Source: a virus (Duplodnaviria; Caudoviricetes). Taken from it: 26,649 nucleotides of DNA. Below the pieces are notes generated by a model, which ran no database searches, was not told the DNA's origin, and saw only the letters and a list, made by a program, of their open reading frames with translations. How positions within the stretch are numbered: the first letter of the stretch is position 1; each line of letters opens with the position of its first letter. Shown piece after piece: positions 598-16,635 of this stretch. Made by a program: the position numbers and the translations under genes. The DNA lies in IMG/VR virus record IMGVR_UViG_3300049782_000019, positions 1-26,649 of that record; one strand, 5' to 3'.

Positions 598-652
598 TGC
601 GCCTCAACGCCACCCAACGTGCCCCATCGCAGCCCACCCCGACTCAACGGTC
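598..652 (+). repeat. Degenerate 10-bp-phased repeat (CYCAH every 10 nt)
   Basis: CTCAA 603, CCCAA 613, CCCAT 623, CCCAC 633, CTCAA 643. Confidence 0.5.
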
Positions 653-654
653 GC

Positions 655-684
655 TTGACCCGGCGATCACCCGTATGTCACAGT
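655..684 (+). promoter_or_regulatory. Putative sigma70/HrdB-type (late) promoter
   Basis: TTGACC (655-660), 18-nt spacer, extended -10 TG-n-CACAGT (676-684), in the intergenic gap upstream of the co-oriented late genes. Confidence 0.5.
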
Positions 685-720
685 GCCCCCAGGGCAGGAC
701 ACGTGTGCCCGCAAGCCTCT

Positions 721-749
721 AGGCCCCCAGCTACTGCCGGGGGCCTTTT
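721..749 (+). terminator. Rho-independent terminator in the leader
   Basis: AGGCCCCC (721-728) / GGGGGCCT (739-746) 8-bp stem followed by TTT. Confidence 0.65.
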
Positions 750-769
750 GCATGCCCCGGGGAGGCCAC

Positions 770-1012
770 ATGGACGTCACCGAGCTGTACCCGGACGACC
801 TCGTCTACGAGCACGAAGCGACCGAAGCGACCGGAGTCCCCGGCCCGGTCATCCGGCAGTGGGCGCGACGGAAGAAGATCCGGAAGTTCCCCGGCGACGG
901 CCGGCTCACCGGGCAGGGCCACGAGTACAAGACGATGTACGCCCTGCCCGAGATACGCGAACGCGCCCGCACTTACCGGCCCATGCCGCAGCGCGCCCGC
1001 CGCGCCGCCTGA
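770..1012 (+). CDS. Small helix-turn-helix DNA-binding protein (MerR/excisionase-like), 80 aa
   Basis: GGAGG at 761-765, ATG at 770. EATEATGVPGPVIRQWARRKKI matches the MerR-type HTH pattern, with a wing ending in YALPEI. Confidence 0.7.
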   Translation: MDVTELYPDDLVYEHEATEATGVPGPVIRQWARRKKIRKFPGDGRLTGQGHEYKTMYALPEIRERARTYRPMPQRARRAA

Positions 1013-1016
1013 TCGT

Positions 1017-1051
1017 CCCGCCGTCCGGCCACCCCCGTCACGGACGGCGGG
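1017..1051 (+). terminator. Intergenic stem-loop (terminator or processing/stability hairpin)
   Basis: Perfect 11-bp stem CCCGCCGTCCG (1017-1027) / CGGACGGCGGG (1041-1051); weak U tract. Confidence 0.5.
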
Positions 1052-1074
1052 GCTTCCACAAGGGGGTGAGTCCC

Positions 1075-1458
1075 ATCGCGGACAACCTGACGAATACCGC
1101 CGAAAATCGAGCGCTCGACTTTCTGCTCGGTCTGGCGGCGACAGCCCCCACCACCCCGCTGAAAGTCGCGCTGGTCACCGCGAACGGTGACGACGCGACC
1201 GCGGGCACGGAGGTGACGGGCGGTTCCTACGCGCGGCAGAACCTGTCCGTCGCCGCGGCCGTGAACGGGGCAACCAGCAACAGCGCAGACCTCGTGTGGA
1301 GCGGCATGCCGGCCGCGACCGTGGTCGGGGTGGAGATCTGGGACTCGTCCGGAACCCCGGTCCGGCTCTGGTACGGGCCGCTATCCGCCTCGCGGACCGT
1401 GGCCGCGGGGGATGAGCTGCGGCTGACCGCGGGGTCGCTCACCCTGTCCCTGGCGTAG
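1075..1458 (+). CDS. Phage virion structural protein (small beta-rich fibre-associated family); start uncertain (ATC 1075 or GTG 1066)
   Basis: ADNLTNTAENRALD...EVTGGSYARQ...NSADLVW...IWDS...G.L...TV..GD.L..AGSL pattern typical of small phage fibre/structural proteins; SD-like GGGGGTGA at 1062-1069. Confidence 0.7.
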   Translation: MADNLTNTAENRALDFLLGLAATAPTTPLKVALVTANGDDATAGTEVTGGSYARQNLSVAAAVNGATSNSADLVWSGMPAATVVGVEIWDSSGTPVRLWYGPLSASRTVAAGDELRLTAGSLTLSLA

Positions 1459-1468
1459 GGAGGCGCTC

Positions 1469-2584
1469 GTGCCGAGCCTCTCGACCCTCCAGGACAACTT
1501 CAACGACGGTGTTGTCGGCCCCGAGTGGGGCAACTCCTACGGCGGCGTCAGCGAGACTGGCGGCCGGGCCCGCGTGCCCTGCACGACCGGGTTTGCCGGT
1601 TACCAGACCGCCTACAGTTGGACCTTGGCCGGCGCAGCGCTGTTCGTGAAGGTCGCCAGCATTCCGAACCCCGCCGGCGCGACCGAGGCGTACTGCGGTG
1701 TCCTCGTCAACTCCGGCACGGACGGCACCCGCATTGGCTTCACGATCAAAGCGGTTGGTGGGCTGCTGCGGATGCAGTCCGACAGCGGCTACTTTGACCC
1801 GGACGCCGTCGAGATCACCTACGACCCGGTCGCGCACGCGTTCCTGCGGCTGCGCGAGGACGGCAGCAACGTCTACTGGGACACCAGCCCCGACGGCACG
1901 ACCTGGACAAACCGGCGCACCCTCGCCACCCCAGCGTGGGTCCCGGCCGCCATCGACACCTGTGCCCTCGACCTGTCCGCCCACCGCGACGCCGGCACCC
2001 CCGACGAGGCCACCTACGACCTGTTCAACACACTGAACAACGGGGCCGTCCACGAAGGCGCCGCAGACCTCACGGCCAGCAGCGGACTCACCGCGACGGC
2101 CGCCGTCTCCCTCCACGCCGCCGCCGACCTCACAGCCGACGCCAACCTCAACGGCGCCCTCAGCCTGTCCGCGCGTGCCGCCGCCAACCTGTCCGCCCTC
2201 GCAGGCCTCGCGGCCGATGCGGACAGCAGCCCCATCCCGGAGGTGGCCCAGGTGTCCGCGGGAACCCAGAACCTCCTCATCGAACAAGGCTCCACGTTCG
2301 TTCAGACGTACACCGTCATCGAACCGGCCAACTGGACGTGGGACGGGTGGACTGCGCGAGCACAGATCAGGTCCGCTGCAGCCACCGACAACGGCGACCT
2401 TCTCCTCGACCTCACCCCCTACCTGATGGTCATCGGGGCCGCGGTCCGTCTGGCCATCCCCGCCGACGTCACCCAGAACCTCACCCGCAACGGCGTGTGG
2501 GACCTGGAGATGGTCCTCGGCTCCACCGTCGTGCGGCTGCTGCAGGGCCGGGTCACTGTGTCGCTGGAGGTGACCCGCGCATGA
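1469..2584 (+). CDS. Putative virion appendage protein: N-terminal beta-sandwich/lectin-like domain, 3x20-aa repeats, C-terminal LtfC/BppU-like adaptor domain
   Basis: GGGAGG RBS and GTG start. Begins DNFNDG; C-terminal NLLIEQGSTF...WTARAQIR...GVWDLEM...RLLQGRVTVSLEVTR is a typical fibre-attachment beta-sandwich. Confidence 0.7.
   Translation: MPSLSTLQDNFNDGVVGPEWGNSYGGVSETGGRARVPCTTGFAGYQTAYSWTLAGAALFVKVASIPNPAGATEAYCGVLVNSGTDGTRIGFTIKAVGGLLRMQSDSGYFDPDAVEITYDPVAHAFLRLREDGSNVYWDTSPDGTTWTNRRTLATPAWVPAAIDTCALDLSAHRDAGTPDEATYDLFNTLNNGAVHEGAADLTASSGLTATAAVSLHAAADLTADANLNGALSLSARAAANLSALAGLAADADSSPIPEVAQVSAGTQNLLIEQGSTFVQTYTVIEPANWTWDGWTARAQIRSAAATDNGDLLLDLTPYLMVIGAAVRLAIPADVTQNLTRNGVWDLEMVLGSTVVRLLQGRVTVSLEVTRA
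2051..2230 (+). repeat. Three in-frame 60-nt (20-aa) degenerate repeats
   Basis: HEGAADLTASSGLTATAAVS / LHAAADLTADANLNGALSLS / ARAAANLSALAGLAADADSS. Confidence 0.7.
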
Positions 2585-3672
2585 GGATCGCGGTCACCGG
2601 CGAGACCGAGCCCGACGCGATCGACGTCAGCGGCGGCCAGCCCGTCACCGTCGTCGAAGTCGACACGACGATCACTGTGGGCGGGTCGGACAAGCTGCCG
2701 CTCACGGGCGGCACCATCTCCGGCGCCCTGGTCATCGACCGGCACGGCGCCCCAGCAGGCCACCCGATCGGGCAGGCCGGGGCCGTCGAGTCGCTGTCCA
2801 TCCTGTCGTCGTTTGCTGGCGGCCCGGACGACGGGCAGCCCGGGCGCTTCGACTCGACCGGCCGCGCGAATTTCTACGCCTACCAGAACGCTAGCGTCGG
2901 CTCCTACGGGGAGACGATCCGCCACTTCCTCATGCGGGCGGACGCCAAGGCCATGGAAGCCTGGTACTTCCCGAGCGGCGGTTACGACGCCAACCGGGAG
3001 CCGGTGGGCAACTTCAAGCCGGTGGTGTGGGCGGGCGCGCACTGGGAGGCCAACGATCACGGCTCGCTTCACAAGCACTGGTCCGTCGAGACACCCGACG
3101 TCAGCGGCGCGATCCAGACGCGCTTCGAGATCCGCTTCGGCAACCCGACGGTCAGCAACGCGATCGCCGGGCTTGACAAGACGCTGATCATGACGAACCT
3201 GGCAGACCTGGTAGTTCGGTGCTCGAACGGCCAAGAGCTACGTCTCTCCAGCCCCGACGGCCAGGAGAAGAAGCTGACCTTCTCTCGCGACGCCGAAGGC
3301 AACCCGCAGTTCCGGCGTTGGACGATCCGCTCCACCAGCGAACCCGAGACCGGCGCGAACGCGGGCTCCAACTGGCAGCTGGTCCGCTACGACGACAGCG
3401 GCAATCTGATCGACACCCCGATCGTCGTCTCCCGCTCCACGGGCAACGTAACCCTCACGCCTGGCCTGGTCGTGCGGCGCGCGTCGTCGACCGTGTCGAG
3501 CCTCAGCCTGAACACCACCAGCCTCGGCGGCGGTGTCGGCGTGCTGGCCATCGGCAACGCGGGCACGGTGCCCGCCTCGAACCCGACCGGCGGAGGCGTC
3601 CTGTACGCCGAAGGCGGCGCCCTGAAGTGGAGAGGCAGCAATGGAACCGTCACCCAGCTCGCCGCAGCCTGA
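2581..3672 (+). CDS. Tail fibre/spike-like protein (363 aa)
   Basis: ATGA overlap with the upstream gene. Fibre motif KLPLTGGTISG; C-terminus GGGVGVLAIGNA...PTGGGVLYAEGGALKWRGSNGTVT is typical of actinophage fibres. Confidence 0.7.
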   Translation: MRIAVTGETEPDAIDVSGGQPVTVVEVDTTITVGGSDKLPLTGGTISGALVIDRHGAPAGHPIGQAGAVESLSILSSFAGGPDDGQPGRFDSTGRANFYAYQNASVGSYGETIRHFLMRADAKAMEAWYFPSGGYDANREPVGNFKPVVWAGAHWEANDHGSLHKHWSVETPDVSGAIQTRFEIRFGNPTVSNAIAGLDKTLIMTNLADLVVRCSNGQELRLSSPDGQEKKLTFSRDAEGNPQFRRWTIRSTSEPETGANAGSNWQLVRYDDSGNLIDTPIVVSRSTGNVTLTPGLVVRRASSTVSSLSLNTTSLGGGVGVLAIGNAGTVPASNPTGGGVLYAEGGALKWRGSNGTVTQLAAA

Positions 3673-4387: not shown

Positions 4388-4604
4388 ACTGCATGGGTCC
4401 GACATCGAGATCATCGAGCAGCGGAAGGGGCCGATTGACGGCACCGACGTAGTGCTGCCGAACCTGGTCCGCATCAACGGCACCCCGGTCGCAATTCCTG
4501 CCGACTCCGTCATCAAGATCGGCGACATTGCGGACGGAGAACTCGTCACCGTCACCATCACCGTCTTCGCCCGCAGCGTCAGCATCCGAGCCGAAGAGAC
4601 CTGA
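4380..4604 (+). CDS. Hypothetical protein (74 aa)
   Basis: GTGGCTGA overlap with the methyltransferase stop; beta-rich sequence VRINGTPV...VTVTITVFARSV. Confidence 0.65.
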   Translation: MAELHGSDIEIIEQRKGPIDGTDVVLPNLVRINGTPVAIPADSVIKIGDIADGELVTVTITVFARSVSIRAEET

Positions 4605-4623
4605 CCCACGGAGGCCCGCGCCC

Positions 4624-4809
4624 ATGACCACTCACCGCATCCGCTTCGACGACGGTTCGACCGAACTCATTGAGGCAGCGTCCGTTGAGTACGACTACGA
4701 CGAGTCGGTGTTCCGCTTCCGAGACGAGGAAGGCCAGACGATCACCTGGGTGCCGAGCCTCAATGTCCGCAGCGTGACGGGCGGCAAGGCCCCAGCCGCA
4801 GGACAGTGA
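4624..4809 (+). CDS. Hypothetical protein (61 aa)
   Basis: GGAGG at 4610-4614, ATG at 4624; GTGA overlap with the next gene. Confidence 0.65.
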   Translation: MTTHRIRFDDGSTELIEAASVEYDYDESVFRFRDEEGQTITWVPSLNVRSVTGGKAPAAGQ

Positions 4810-11541: not shown

Positions 11542-12495
11542 ATGGCAACCAACCCGATCAAGCTGAGCGACGTCGACGCGACGTTCCTCCCCCCGACCCT
11601 CACGGGCCCCATCTTCGAGAAGTCCGTCGAACAGTCCGCGGTCATGTCGCTGGCCCGCCGGGTGCCGCTCTCCATGAGCGCCAACACGGCCGTGCCGGTG
11701 CCGCTGGACGTGCCGACCGCGGACTGGGTCGAGCAGGCCGGCCGGAAGCCGCTGGGAACGGGCGGCGTCGACATCAAGCAGATGACCGGCAAGAAGATCG
11801 CCGTCCTCATCCCGGTCGCGATGGAGGTCGTGCAGTCGAACGCGGCGGGCCTGTGGACGCAACTGCAGAACGACCTGCCGACGGCGTTCTCCCGCGCGTT
11901 CGACCGGGCGGCGATCCACGGACGCACGATGAAGGGCGCGGTCGGCCCCTTCCCGGACTACCTCACCCAGACCACGAAGTCCGTCGCGCTGGGCACGACC
12001 ACGCAGGCGAACGGCGGCATCTGGGGCGACTTCGTCTCCGGCATGGGCGAAATCGTCGACGACGACTGGGACTACACCGGCACCGTCGCCGACCACCGCC
12101 TGAAGACCCGCCTGCTGGGGGCGACGGACACGACCGGCCGGCCGATCCTCGTCGACACCACCCAGCCGGGCACCGGCGCCGCGCTGGCGGGAACCCTGGT
12201 CGGTGAGCCGATCGCCTACTCCCGCAGCGTTTCGGGCAAGCTGCGCCGCCAGTCGGGCACCGTGGACTCCGGCCTGCGGGCGATCGGCGGGGACTGGTCG
12301 CAGACCGCCTACGGCGTCGGCATGGACATCACCGTGCGGATCTCCCGCGAGGCGACGTACATCGACGAGGACGGCGGCGTCCACTCCGCGTTCCAGGAGA
12401 ACCTGGTGCTCCTCCTCGCGGAGGCGTACTACGGGTTCGTCCTGGGCGACCCGGAGGCGTTCGTCAAGTTCACTGGCACCCCGTCGGGGTCCTGA
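11542..12495 (+). CDS. Major capsid protein (HK97 fold, 317 aa)
   Basis: GAGAGGA RBS; A.WVEQAGRKP, KKIAVLIPV, AFDRAAIHG, FQENLV...AE...GF...DPEAF. Confidence 0.93.
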   Translation: MATNPIKLSDVDATFLPPTLTGPIFEKSVEQSAVMSLARRVPLSMSANTAVPVPLDVPTADWVEQAGRKPLGTGGVDIKQMTGKKIAVLIPVAMEVVQSNAAGLWTQLQNDLPTAFSRAFDRAAIHGRTMKGAVGPFPDYLTQTTKSVALGTTTQANGGIWGDFVSGMGEIVDDDWDYTGTVADHRLKTRLLGATDTTGRPILVDTTQPGTGAALAGTLVGEPIAYSRSVSGKLRRQSGTVDSGLRAIGGDWSQTAYGVGMDITVRISREATYIDEDGGVHSAFQENLVLLLAEAYYGFVLGDPEAFVKFTGTPSGS

Positions 12496-13517
12496 TGGGG
12501 GCGGTCCCGGCTTCCGCGCCGGGCGGGGCCGCGCTCCGTATCGTGGCCCGCGTCCATCTCATGCCGCCGCAGCACAACGCCGGAGCCGAGCACATGCTCG
12601 TCTCCATGCTGCGGCCTCTGGTGGAGCGCGGGCACGACGTACAGGTGTGGCTGTCCCGGTACGGCAGAGCCGTGGAGCCCTACGCCTACCGGGGCATCCA
12701 GGTGGTGCCGCTAGAGGCGCGGCTCGACTTCCCGACCGCGGTCCGCAAGGCGGACGTGCTCATCTCGCATCTGGAGTGCGTGCCGCATACGACGGCGCTG
12801 GCACGCGGTTACGGCAAGCCGGTGGTGGTGATCTGCCACAACACGCACCGGCCTACGTTCCGGGACATGGCCTCGGGCGGCACCGCGCTGGCGGTGTACA
12901 ACAGTCAGTGGATGGAGCGGGAGGCGGAGCTGTTCTTCGCCGAGTACCCGAAGGCAATCCGGCCCGCGGCCAGCCTGATCGTGCGCCCGCCGGTGTTCGC
13001 CAGCGAGTACGCCACCAGGCCCGGCAAGGCGGTCACGCTGATCAACTGCAACCCGGAGAAGGGCGGCCGGGTACTGGAGAAGCTGGCCCGTCGCATGCCG
13101 GACCAGCAGTTCCTAGCGGTGAAAGGCGCCTACGGCGAGCAGATCCTCCCCGACCTGCCGAACGTCGAGATCGTCGAGCACGTCGACGGCGCTGAGATGC
13201 GGGAGGCGGTGTACGGCCGCACGCGGGTGCTGCTGATGCCGTCGTCCTACGAGTCGTGGGGCCGGGCCGGCGTCGAGGCACTCGCCTCGGGTATCCCCGT
13301 GGTTGCGCACCCGACGCCGGGCCTGTGCGAATCGCTCGGCGAGGCCGGCGTGTTCGTGGACCGCACCGACATTGACGGCTACGAGGCGGTGCTGCGGAAG
13401 CTGCTGCAGCCCGCGGAGTACCGGCTGGCGTCAAAGCGGGCCCGGGCCCGAAGTGCCGAACTGAATCCGACTGCCGAGCTGGCCGCCTGGTGCGATGCCG
13501 TGGAGGCCCTGGCATAG
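12495..13517 (+). CDS. Glycosyltransferase, GT-B fold, family 4
   Basis: N-terminal AGAE...L...LVERGHDVQV, EKGG, and C-terminal LMPSSYESWGRAGVEALASGIPVVA..TPGLCESLG (EX7E motif). TGATG overlap with the capsid stop. Confidence 0.9.
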   Translation: MGAVPASAPGGAALRIVARVHLMPPQHNAGAEHMLVSMLRPLVERGHDVQVWLSRYGRAVEPYAYRGIQVVPLEARLDFPTAVRKADVLISHLECVPHTTALARGYGKPVVVICHNTHRPTFRDMASGGTALAVYNSQWMEREAELFFAEYPKAIRPAASLIVRPPVFASEYATRPGKAVTLINCNPEKGGRVLEKLARRMPDQQFLAVKGAYGEQILPDLPNVEIVEHVDGAEMREAVYGRTRVLLMPSSYESWGRAGVEALASGIPVVAHPTPGLCESLGEAGVFVDRTDIDGYEAVLRKLLQPAEYRLASKRARARSAELNPTAELAAWCDAVEALA

Positions 13518-14318: not shown

Positions 14319-14645
14319 ATGGCAGCTCGTTTCAAGCTGAAGAAGAAGGGCGTGGGCCAGTTGCTGCGATCAGAGATGATCCGCGGTGATCTGGTGCGCC
14401 GCGCAGAAGGCATCAAGGAAACGGCTGTCGCGATCTCCCCGGTCGGCGGCTCTGGCGACCCGCATCCGGGCCAGTACAAGGGCTCCTGGGAGGTGTCGAG
14501 TACGAGGCGCGGTGGCCGCCGCCGTGACCGCGCCGTCGCCTACGTTCGGAACGGCACGTACTACGCCCGCTGGGTGGAGTACGGCACCGAGCGCGTCCCC
14601 GCGCACCACGTGCTGCTGCGGGCTGCGGCGTCGGGTGGCGACTGA
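14319..14645 (+). CDS. HK97 gp10-like neck/tail completion protein
   Basis: AGGAGG RBS; SPV...GQYKGSW...YARWVEYGT...HHVLLRAA. Confidence 0.8.
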   Translation: MAARFKLKKKGVGQLLRSEMIRGDLVRRAEGIKETAVAISPVGGSGDPHPGQYKGSWEVSSTRRGGRRRDRAVAYVRNGTYYARWVEYGTERVPAHHVLLRAAASGGD

Positions 14646-15046
14646 TGGCCGCCGTTGGTTCCGTCGACGTCGAGCTGGAGGTCATGGTGTGGCTCCGCGC
14701 CCGCCTCGACCCCGACGTCGTGGTCCGTGACGAACTGGACAACAACCTGCTCAACGAGCTGCCGACCGTGCAGGTACAGCGTCTCCCGGCCGGAGGCGAC
14801 GACGGAATCCGCCTGGATCGGGCGCTCGTCGACGTTGACGTGTATGCCGGGAGGCGGGCGGACGCGATCGCGTTGTCGGCGACGATCCGGGGCCTGCTGC
14901 TGGGGGAGTTGCGCGGCAGCTCGACGAACGCCGCCGTATTCGGCCGGGTGGGCACGGTCAGTGCGCCCGGGATCCGCCCCTACGAGAACACGTTGCTCCG
15001 CCGCGTCGGGGCGACCTACGAGATCTTCTGTCACCCGGTCTCCTGA
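14645..15046 (+). CDS. Tail terminator protein
   Basis: TGATG overlap; DVE..V..WL, LP.VQVQR..GG.D...LDRALVDVDVYA; precedes the major tail gene. Confidence 0.8.
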   Translation: MAAVGSVDVELEVMVWLRARLDPDVVVRDELDNNLLNELPTVQVQRLPAGGDDGIRLDRALVDVDVYAGRRADAIALSATIRGLLLGELRGSSTNAAVFGRVGTVSAPGIRPYENTLLRRVGATYEIFCHPVS

Positions 15047-15078
15047 CCGGTCGGGCCCGCGCCGGACCCTGTAACCCT

Positions 15079-15099
15079 GACCCCGCCAGCCGCGGGGTC
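15079..15099 (+). other. Stem-loop upstream of the major tail gene
   Basis: GACCCCGC (15079-15086) / GCGGGGTC (15092-15099), 5-nt loop. Confidence 0.55.
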
Positions 15100-15121: not shown

Positions 15122-15709
15122 ATGGTTTCGATCACCCGCGCGGCGGACCTTCTGGAAGTCGGAGCGAACGGCGCCGGCTGGGTGGCCCCCCTCGGCACGA
15201 CCTCGCCCGGCGATCCGGCCGTTCAGCCGCCGTCGCCGTGGCTGCCGCTCGGCGCCATCAGCGACGACGGACTCGTCCAGGGCTTCGAGGAGGACTCCCA
15301 GTCCTTCACCCCGTGGGGCCTGACCGCCCCGATTCGCACCGCGATCACGTCCAGCCTGCGCACGTTCGGTCTGACGGCGTGGGAGACGGGCCGCACTACC
15401 GTGCAGTCCCTGCAGTACCGCGTCGATGTCGCCGACCTCACCCCGACCGCCGGGCTCACCACGTTCGCGGAGACGGCGTCGCCGTCCCCGGACCGGCGCG
15501 CTTTCTGGTTCATCGTCCTCGACGGCGACAACTTCCAGCGCGGGTTCTACGTCCCCGAGGGCGAGATCACCGAGCGGTCCGACGTCACTCACAAGCAGGA
15601 CGAGGTCGCGGGCTTCGAGTGGACGATCACCGCCTACCCGGACTCGGCCGGCAACACCGTCTACCACTTCGACCGTGTCCCGGAGACCGAGGCGTACACC
15701 GGGTCCTGA
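15122..15709 (+). CDS. Major tail (tube) protein
   Basis: WVAPLGT..P, LGAISDDG, PWG...IR, GEITERSDV, EWTITAYPD; GGAG RBS. Confidence 0.92.
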   Translation: MVSITRAADLLEVGANGAGWVAPLGTTSPGDPAVQPPSPWLPLGAISDDGLVQGFEEDSQSFTPWGLTAPIRTAITSSLRTFGLTAWETGRTTVQSLQYRVDVADLTPTAGLTTFAETASPSPDRRAFWFIVLDGDNFQRGFYVPEGEITERSDVTHKQDEVAGFEWTITAYPDSAGNTVYHFDRVPETEAYTGS

Positions 15710-15712
15710 GCC

Positions 15713-15800
15713 GGTGGACGGGCCGCCACCCTGGCGCGGGCCCGGCCCGTCCACCTCCCTTTCCCTGCCCGCGCCAACTAAGAGAAGGAGGCCCGCGCCA
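15713..15800 (+). promoter_or_regulatory. Structured RNA element (hairpin plus pseudoknot) between the tail tube and chaperone genes
   Basis: Perfect 13-bp stem 15713-15725 / 15743-15755; loop TGGCGCGGGCC is complementary to 15767-15776 and 15790-15800. Confidence 0.65.
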
Positions 15801-16219
15801 TGGCCGCGAACCAGCGCACCACCACCAGCAGGAAGCCCCGCACCGCCGCCCGAGCCGCTTCCCGGCCGTCTCGTACCGCGCCGGAACCGGAGGCGCAGGA
15901 CGTCGACGAGCAGCAGCCGACCGCGGCTGAGACGGAAGCGGAAGGCCTCTATGTCACCGCCGTTCTGTGCGGAGAGGAACTGCAGATCATCCCGCCCGGG
16001 TCGTGGCGGGCCTCGTGGCAGGCCCTCCTCAACCAGGGGCAGATCGCCGCCTTCGTCGAACAGGTCGTGCACCCGGACGACATCGACACCTTCTGGGAGA
16101 TCGATCCCGTCAACACGGAGTTCTACGACTTCATCGAGGACGCGGCCCAGCAGTCCGGTGAGAGCCTGGGGAAATCGCGTGGACCCGGCAGGTCGTCGCA
16201 GCGCACGAGGAGGCGGTAG
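15800..16219 (+). CDS. Tail assembly chaperone (lambda gpG equivalent)
   Basis: AAGGAGG RBS; lies between the major tail and tape measure genes; ends just past the slippery CTG GGG AAA. Confidence 0.85.
   Translation: MAANQRTTTSRKPRTAARAASRPSRTAPEPEAQDVDEQQPTAAETEAEGLYVTAVLCGEELQIIPPGSWRASWQALLNQGQIAAFVEQVVHPDDIDTFWEIDPVNTEFYDFIEDAAQQSGESLGKSRGPGRSSQRTRRR
16168..16174 (+). other. Programmed -1 frameshift site GGGGAAA
   Basis: G GGG AAA lies in the short overlap window (16162-16219) of the G and T frames. Confidence 0.78.
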
Positions 16220-16635
16220 AGGGCGACCTCGCCCTCTACTACCCGCGCAGCGAGGACCAGCTCGCCGCCTTCTACCGCGGCGAGATGTCCGCACGACGAC
16301 TCAGGGTCCTCATCCAACGCCTTCCTCCCGAGTCCGCTACCTGGACGGCACTCCGCAACGCGATGAGCCCGGAGGAGATCGCCGCGCAGGCCGACAAGGG
16401 CGACCCGGAGAAGGGCCAGTGGTCCCAGCAGGAGCAGCTGCTGGCGCTGGTAGCGGACCGGTTGGCCCGCCTGGAATGGGTCCTCTGGTGCGTGAACATC
16501 GACAAGAAGTCAAAGCGGCCCGACCCGCCTGAGCCGATCCCGCGGCCCGGGGCCAAGCCCCGCAAGGCCAGGGCCACGTTGACCGAGAACAGCGCGACCC
16601 GCCTGTTCCAGCTCATACAGGGGGGCGCCGAGTAG
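16171..16635 (+). CDS. Tail assembly chaperone -1 frame extension (gpT part of a ~278-aa gpGT fusion starting at 15800)
   Basis: The -1 frame is open from 16162 and reads EIAWTRQV...AVEGDLALYY...FYRGEMSARRLRVLIQRLPPESA...PEPIPRPG. Confidence 0.82.
   Translation, partial: EIAWTRQVVAAHEEAVEGDLALYYPRSEDQLAAFYRGEMSARRLRVLIQRLPPESATWTALRNAMSPEEIAAQADKGDPEKGQWSQQEQLLALVADRLARLEWVLWCVNIDKKSKRPDPPEPIPRPGAKPRKARATLTENSATRLFQLIQGGAE

Follow-up and report, generated by a model that had tools for sequence, protein, structure and literature searches.

How a phage sets the output of tail assembly chaperone against that of tube protein from one late transcript is a question for which no mechanism was found in the searchable literature. 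Chaperone dose matters in lambda tail assembly, and the available text of PMC5009743 describes the G:GT ratio as crucial. The question is raised here by a hairpin, P1, which lies between the tube gene and the gene for chaperone G in the window, the whole stretch of DNA analysed (26,649 nucleotides). The window is a late-gene region of a Streptomyces-type siphophage, and the virus record is 43% complete. Features of the locus are collected in Table 1. In the reading-frame check, the -1 frame was open from 16168 to 16635 and overlapped the end of the chaperone G gene, which suggests a G-T fusion made by frameshifting. GGGGAAA at 16168-16174, close to the end of this gene, is presumably the usual G-T frameshift site. 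Other observations on gene content were a glycosyltransferase-like match (phrog_2170) for the gene at 12495-13517, next after the capsid gene, and a head-protein-like ORF (phrog_240) with its neighbours at 619-3672, far upstream of the terminase and separate from the main head genes. The tube protein had the C-terminus Gly-Ser (15701-15709).

Table 1. Features of the tube-chaperone locus, in coordinates of the window.
Feature	Position	Strand	Basis or remark
Tail terminator gene	14645-15046		PHROGs
U, upstream loop partner just past the tail-terminator stop	15049-15065	+	Complementarity
Leader hairpin between U and the tube Shine-Dalgarno sequence (SD)	15079-15099	+	Predicted fold; similar hairpins seen by eye in printed relatives
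Major tail (tube) protein gene	15122-15709	+	phrog_117, E 4.6e-37; PF25681 in homologues
P1, 13-bp stem (15713-15725 / 15743-15755) with 17-nt loop (15726-15742)	15713-15755	+	Positioned after the tube stop
Guide segment, 3' side of the P1 loop, touching the 3' arm	15732-15742	+	Predicted pairing with each of U, D1 and D2
Linker of pyrimidines with a weak U-tract, loop 3 of the D1 pseudoknot	15756-15766	+	Sequence
D1, the nearer target, 10-bp helix of pseudoknot 1, with the SD predicted to stay free	15767-15776	+	Complementarity
SD of the chaperone gene, AAGGAGG	15785-15791	+	Sequence
D2, giving pseudoknot 2 (11 bp), predicted initiation block	15790-15800	+	Complementarity
Gene for tail assembly chaperone G, the putative target of regulation	15800-16219	+	PHROGs match weak, E 1.4e-4
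Second tail assembly chaperone PHROGs match	16285-16635		PHROGs
Tape measure gene	from 16655		PHROGs

The initial annotation had described a switch in which the loop of P1 pairs either with a decoy, D1, or with the chaperone start, D2. Both arms of its perfect 13-bp stem around a 17-nt loop were reproduced exactly. The same held for the two targets, with loop positions 15732-15741 exactly complementary to 15767-15776 and 15732-15742 exactly complementary to 15790-15800. As had been claimed, D2 reaches from the final GG of the SD across the spacer to the first base of the chaperone ATG, the A at 15800. The two pairings are also mutually exclusive, because the D1 and D2 helices need identical loop bases. 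When the 47 nt downstream of an unaltered stem were shuffled with dinucleotides preserved, one loop match of at least 10 bp arose in 13/5000 shuffles and two arose in 0/5000. P1 alone had a folding z of -3.4, with 2/200 shuffles equally good. The 141-nt region as a nested fold was unremarkable (z = -0.87) in a program without pseudoknot modelling. The structural half of the proposed switch, the two predicted loop pairings, is strongly supported by the comparisons below. A tuning of the tube:chaperone ratio by a decoy-paired ON state and a start-occluding OFF state is plausible.

Tube-protein searches yielded 31 genome loci, all Streptomyces by title, and two sets of 80 viral loci. Duplicates and six too-short loci were dropped, and the resulting close-relative set comprised 150 distinct sequences including the window. 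The detector was not supplied with the motif, used a target threshold of at least 7 bp and allowed G-U pairs. The conserved complementarity expected by the initial annotation was found, with two loop targets in 148/150 sequences, a detector count that misses L127, where both copies are visible, and includes L086, where D1 has decayed. In 142 of the 148 two-target relatives, the end of D2 fell between -1 and +1 relative to the start codon. Loop length was 12-45 nt, often with an inserted hairpin, and the linker to D1 was 6-27 nt, mostly 8-14 nt. Two relatives, L023 (2086-2560) and L086 (2083-2300), carried insertions before the chaperone gene that were flanked by two copies of SD, D2 and ATG. 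The insertion in L023 was a separate 118-aa ORF, and that in L086 was an in-frame Cys/His-rich extension of 39 aa, with D1 lost. A perfect D2 was kept at the second start, about 370 nt further on in L023 and about 120 nt further on in L086.

Covariation was assessed in 25 divergent, hand-picked rows, with a shuffle control that ignores relatedness. Both pairings changed with the loop. P1 showed changes on both sides in 8 of its 13 pairs. One G-C pair was replaced by U-A in both pseudoknot helices in 7/25 rows, with scores reached by 0/500 shuffles; these seven rows belong to one subclade and represent one inherited event, and U was altered there too. In L140, the guide and D1 had changed together, with D2 and U unchanged. 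L026 had an A-U pair at the D2 end only. Losses were seen for D1 in L086 and for D2 in L348, and largely for D2 in L140. Most internal departures in the targets (14 cases) replaced C by T across from a G of the loop. Core positions 2-8 held four mismatches, of which the decayed D1 of L086 accounted for two, and one more arose from the loop change in L140. Across the comparisons, P1, loop:D1 and loop:D2 are conserved as predicted pairings that share loop bases.

The cultured Streptomyces phage Samy, with a tube protein 34% identical, had the same design in other letters, and two loop targets were present in 35 of 36 distinct Samy-group sequences. A panel of 23 cultured phages was chosen before the intergenic DNA was viewed, comprising eight from best-match lists, 12 from an evenly spread list and the models L5, phiC31 and TM4. 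Together with Samy, 24 phages were analysed. The intergenic gap was below 45 nt in four of them (Kromp, Keiki, LF1 and phiC31). Among the 20 with a gap of at least 45 nt, 14 had two loop targets, with 0/400 shuffles each: Samy, phiHau3, TinaLin, phi674, CallinAllBarbz, Spartoi, Sapo, Phistory, SarahRose, Kepler, CarolAnn, Demsculpinboyz, L5 and TM4. Without Samy, which had prompted the panel, the count was 13/19. Gsput1 was weak (5/400 shuffles), Arti had one target, and Gambol was missed by the detector and passed with a hand-set stem (1/1000 shuffles). No loop targets were found in SamW, phiLC3 and Fryberger. Bxb1 and D29, which were fetched after the panel, passed with 0/1000 shuffles. Since some positives are close kin (L5/D29 and phiHau3/SarahRose), the cultured positives are not all independent. 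Hosts of phages with the design were Streptomyces, Mycobacterium, Gordonia, Corynebacterium, Arthrobacter and Rothia. Corndog, a single case, had leftward genes and no chaperone after the tube gene, and a plain 7-nt loop without a target.

The geometry among the 14 positives fitted an H-type pseudoknot, with the guide 0-3 nt from the 3' arm in 13/14 and helices of 7-12 bp. Predicted pairing of the loop with a 3' strand is supported by the covariation, and this pairing covers or adjoins the SD or start. D2 ended -13 to +1 from the start, always at or near the ribosome-binding site (RBS). At -13 (TinaLin) and, outside the 14, -11 (Gambol), the end lies upstream of most of the SD, and the D2 pairing of these two phages might not block initiation. 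Guide letters varied between phage groups while the pairings held. Differences between D1 and D2 in cultured phages were often at G-U-tolerant positions, a point that is partly circular because the detector permits G-U. In 32 long loci, two targets on one loop segment were found for 31/32 focal hairpins versus 6/227 other strong hairpins, with controls that were not intergenic-matched and an energy cut-off fixed after the panel had been seen. A blastn search of the element region against cultured phages gave no matches. A degenerate pattern scan of viral contigs returned 119 stretches, which were excluded from all counts; 104 of them adjoined a tube gene and the other 15 were chance-like by eye. 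Tube families of about 35-65% identity lie outside the sample. In L5 (L374), D29 (L379) and Bxb1 (L377), a third downstream target copy was located 1-4 nt past P1, too near to form a pseudoknot in cis, and P1 was preceded by an additional small hairpin.

A further partner of the loop, U, is located upstream of the tube gene. The 9-mer shared by D1 and D2 is also present at 15055, after the tail-terminator stop, and U could pair over 12 bp with the loop alone (15054-15065). With invasion of 5 nt in the 3' arm of P1, the helix would lengthen to 17 bp, two of which are G-U. A U match of at least 9 bp was conserved in 148/150 close relatives and reached at least 13 bp in 121/150, which makes U usually the strongest loop partner in the clade. 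It extended at least 3 nt into the 3' arm in 94/150, and its letters shifted together with the loop in the GACC subclade. Four of 17 cultured phages tested had U with lineage-specific letters (Sapo, Phistory, CarolAnn and Demsculpinboyz; 11-13 bp, 0/500 shuffles each), and there it invaded just 0-2 nt of the 3' arm. No exact U copy was found among 36 Samy-group sequences. In Phistory (L365, 490-553) and Demsculpinboyz (L372, 676-738), U overlapped the 5' strand and loop of a hairpin sequestering the tube SD. By eye, pairing of the loop with U could open the tube RBS in these two phages; computed opening energies disagreed between them. Blocking U changed the tube-RBS opening energy by a median of -0.7 kcal/mol in 143 relatives, and by -2.7 to +3.4 kcal/mol in five single cases. 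The leader hairpin downstream of U is a possible 5' boundary or processing signal. In the relative L071, the tube leader was replaced by unrelated sequence, a possible insertion, with a near copy of U still there.

RNA depth was available for a relative of the window, L312, which is identical to Samy over the element region, from three raw-read runs of one study at low depth. Nearly all reads had one orientation, sense under the usual library convention, and almost no opposite-strand reads covered the element. Depth dropped about 2-4-fold across the element, at P1, in 3/3 runs: from about 20 to 5-9, from 24-35 to 7-16, and from 65-100 to 12, the last returning to 60-70 about 300 nt on. Run X22 showed a slow downstream recovery that resembles a break in the message; the contig of run X1 attested presence only. 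No RNA 3' end at P1 was listed for the three runs. The step may reflect termination, 3' protection, cleavage or a reverse-transcription artefact. At L312 position 1990, inside the tube gene, G>A was seen in 18/96 reads of run X22 and was nearly absent in the other two, as a variant or an artefact. For Samy in the inducing HT condition, supplement 18 of PMC11302927 gives counts per base of 30.8 for gene 16 (upstream), 101.8 for the tube gene, 14.2 for G, 47.8 for the T part and 20.1 for the tape measure gene; the tube RNA is therefore in excess. Of the features of an intrinsic terminator, P1 has the GC stem and a weak U-tract, and the depth step came without a listed 3' end. At least five U in the 8 nt after P1 occurred in 24/150 close relatives and in 1/36 Samy-group sequences. 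The terminator scan could not flag P1 because it allows loops of 3-8 nt only.

Several other accounts were rejected. Read-through or frameshifting at the tube stop does not agree with an in-frame TAA at 15779-15781, and no open frame is conserved beyond the tube gene, the stop-to-start distances of relatives falling in all three frames. A general trigger by a ribosome terminating at the end of the tube gene was not supported, because the gap from stop to P1 spans 1 to more than 60 nt (1-21 nt in close relatives, 4-21 nt in the Samy group, 33 nt in L5 and more than 60 nt in TinaLin). YUNR U-turns were not enriched in the loops (11/16 against 9.3 expected; 490/2000 shuffles equally high). A genome-wide repeat of the stoperator or SAS type was dismissed, with seven copies in the window against 3.4 expected (8/100 shuffles equally high), and 48 forward and 57 reverse copies outside the tube locus against 47 and 46 for a control 9-mer (59 loci, 1.02 Mb). 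At 4600-4627 of the window, an SD, a D2-like 9-mer and an ATG precede a small ORF, the sole such start among the 48 extra copies; it may be chance or a trans target. On the comparative pattern, the element acts as an RNA pairing and not as a DNA repeat.

The preferred reading, to which we give about an even chance, is that competing cis pseudoknots limit translation of the tail chaperone. Pseudoknot 1 would form first because D1 leaves the polymerase first, and with it both the SD and the start codon would stay accessible. Once the loop had moved over to D2, the spacer between SD and AUG would be covered and 30S loading would stop. How much chaperone each message yields would depend on the balance of D1 and D2 and on the time elapsed after transcription. 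P1 may additionally maintain the excess of tube RNA, by acting as a leaky stop or by stabilising the 3' end, and U would be a lineage-specific extra competitor for the loop. Modelled helix energies were mostly near balance. D2 minus D1 had a median of -2.5 kcal/mol raw and -1.3 kcal/mol with a loop term in close relatives, and of 0.0 and +1.0 kcal/mol in the Samy group. D2 was better in 106/148 close relatives raw and in 90 with the loop term, and in 14 and 9 of 35 in the Samy group. Cultured phages ranged from -7.3 to +8.6 kcal/mol, and CallinAllBarbz (D1 better by 8.6 kcal/mol) and Phistory (D2 better by 7.3 kcal/mol) were far from balance. Of the switch as initially annotated, the two loop pairings stand, since they covary and recur across genera; the picture was incomplete in that it omitted U and in that the helices are sometimes unbalanced. 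The maintenance of three or four sites suggests an unseen input, as a weaker SD could give a fixed reduction. Some observations count against the cis switch. It handles U, usually the strongest partner, as a mere add-on, and the extra copy in L5, D29 and Bxb1 cannot pair in cis with an intact P1. Targets have been lost in L086, L348 and L140, and among the cultured phages Arti has one target, three have none and four have no gap. The chaperone RBS was not predicted to be fully open in the D1 state, with a median of 8.9 kcal/mol to open 22 nt, a value without control.

Action of the loop in trans is an admissible alternative to a cis-only picture. Tube-only RNAs that end past P1 could pair their loop with D2 on read-through messages; the loop would be free on them because RNAs ending just after P1 lack D1 and D2. 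D1 would neutralise each message's own loop, and chaperone synthesis would fall as tube RNA accumulates. Such feedback, which we consider unlikely, explains the keeping of both D1 and D2 and tolerates a D1 far stronger than D2, as in CallinAllBarbz and Spartoi. It also agrees with the excess of tube RNA in the Samy counts of supplement 18 and the drop at P1 in all three runs, and with the perfect D2 retained at the second start of L023 and L086. However, these duplicated copies may be merely recent, and no RNA 3' end was seen at P1 at the low depth available. Trimming halted at pseudoknot 1 would retain D1, which blocks the loop, and U would take the loop in cis in the window's clade. Further start codons are not targeted, with one of the 48 extra forward copies at a start, and in the stretches of L5, TM4 and L312 no other late-gene start was among the top 10 matches. 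A broader version, which is doubtful, places one loop at the 3' end of the tube message as a guide hub in actinophages. The loop would select one of three partners, namely the decoy in cis, the start of the chaperone gene or the site upstream of the tube gene, and surplus tube-only RNA would serve as an mRNA-borne antisense in trans that shuts chaperone synthesis. If true, it would represent a protein-free feedback circuit timing and balancing tail assembly that has been overlooked in L5, D29, Bxb1 and TM4.

In an improbable reading, long-range pairing of U with the loop would be the main job, the tube gene would be closed into a loop, and D1 and D2 would be competitors. This pairing would protect the tube 5' end, aid re-initiation, or prevent P1 by invading its 3' arm. 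Its retention in nearly all close relatives, its covariation in the GACC subclade, its recurrence with other letters in four cultured phages and the frequent reach into the 3' arm are in favour. Yet U was absent in 13/17 cultured phages tested and had no exact copy in the Samy group, invasion was minimal where cultured phages had U, the loop change in L140 was not matched by one in U, and blocking U had no consistent effect on tube-RBS opening. The depth step, the slow recovery in run X22 and the weak U-tracts would also agree with a role in stability or processing only, where P1 and pseudoknot 1 are nuclease barriers and D2 protects or positions a downstream RNA end with ribosomes unblocked. 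We regard this as quite improbable, since it leaves the tie of D2 to the start codon unexplained while linkers vary freely, and reverse transcription through a strong hairpin may by itself have produced the dip. Least probable is that the repeats are protein-binding sites of a stoperator- or SAS-like kind, in DNA or RNA, beside an ordinary terminator. In its favour, the GACC subclade has altered all four copies in concert, which a change in the specificity of a binding protein would also produce, a further copy stands ahead of a start codon at 4614, and the available text of PMC4351075 calls the Corndog hairpin downstream of the tube gene a terminator. This reading is largely refuted: the motif is not genome-wide, the inverted copy is always in the loop beside the stem, internal departures are mostly C to T opposite G, L140 alters loop and D1 only, and guide letters differ between groups with pairing maintained. 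Stability alone and protein sites fit worst.

The element is a real and widespread RNA architecture with a probable cis-regulatory role, and it is apparently undescribed. The initial annotation had named no RNA family for it, and Rfam 15 likewise gave 0 hits in the window at the gathering threshold, with just two chance-level matches (E 5.3 and 8.3) inside the tube gene, and 0 hits in 10 cultured-phage loci. A full-text literature search, with most subscription papers outside its scope, found no description; its nearest statement was the terminator assigned to the Corndog hairpin (PMC4351075). The tube-chaperone junction is not mentioned in the available D29/L5 transcriptome text (PMC5712189). 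PMC10690425 reports over 10,000 candidate viral RNAs; a term search of six of its supplementary files gave no tail terms, and the element could be among those candidates without a name. As a sequence-variable, structure-conserved candidate for setting chaperone against tube output, it is present in model phages with good genetics (L5, D29, Bxb1, TM4 and Samy), and is therefore testable by few point changes. It would recast hairpins now read as plain terminators as regulatory RNAs, and is relevant to recoding or swapping tail modules.

Among known systems, OppZ and CarZ are autoregulatory sRNAs derived from 3' ends, and the MS2 maturation gene is controlled through a folding window. They provide models for feedback in trans and for a kinetic window, respectively; unlike in these systems, neither a small RNA of its own nor an RNA chaperone nor a delay in folding is evident here. 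The rpsO and alpha-operon pseudoknots exert translational control upstream of the RBS. T4 gene 32 has an autoregulatory pseudoknot, according to the available text of PMC10690425. The position upstream of the RBS is shared with all three, whereas these are protein-binding operators with one pairing and the loop described here has two to three alternative targets. A terminator-type hairpin after the major tail gene is reported for Corndog gene 49 in the available text of PMC4351075. The strong GC stem right after the tube gene, the pyrimidine tail and the RNA step-down resemble such a terminator or stabiliser; the large guide-conserved loop and the U-tract, weak in general and absent in L5, D29 and Bxb1, do not. 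The SAS of cluster K mycobacteriophages are 13-bp sequences, 11-19 per genome, in non-structural genes (PMC3203893, available text). Like SAS and the L5 stoperators (PMC5712189, available text), the element has short asymmetric repeats at intergenic or start positions, and D2 with the SD resembles the 13-bp SAS in some relatives. Unlike them, the motif is found at the tube locus only, where an inverted copy in the loop provides a pairing partner. The pseudoknot of repZ/repA in IncI-alpha and IncB plasmids activates translation, needs leader-peptide termination and is blocked by a separate antisense RNA, as given in the available text of PMC4705826. A trigger by termination of an upstream ORF at a fixed place was not found here, as the gap from tube stop to P1 varies. 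Shared with the plasmid system are a hairpin loop that pairs beside the RBS, competing pairings that are predicted here to decide translation, and, in the window's clade, a GGCG/CGCC seed. The differences are that RBS pairing is predicted to repress and that the competitor is a cis copy (D1 or U). By analogy, and without being a member of that family, the element would work most like repZ/repA, with the sign reversed and a cis competitor replacing the antisense RNA.
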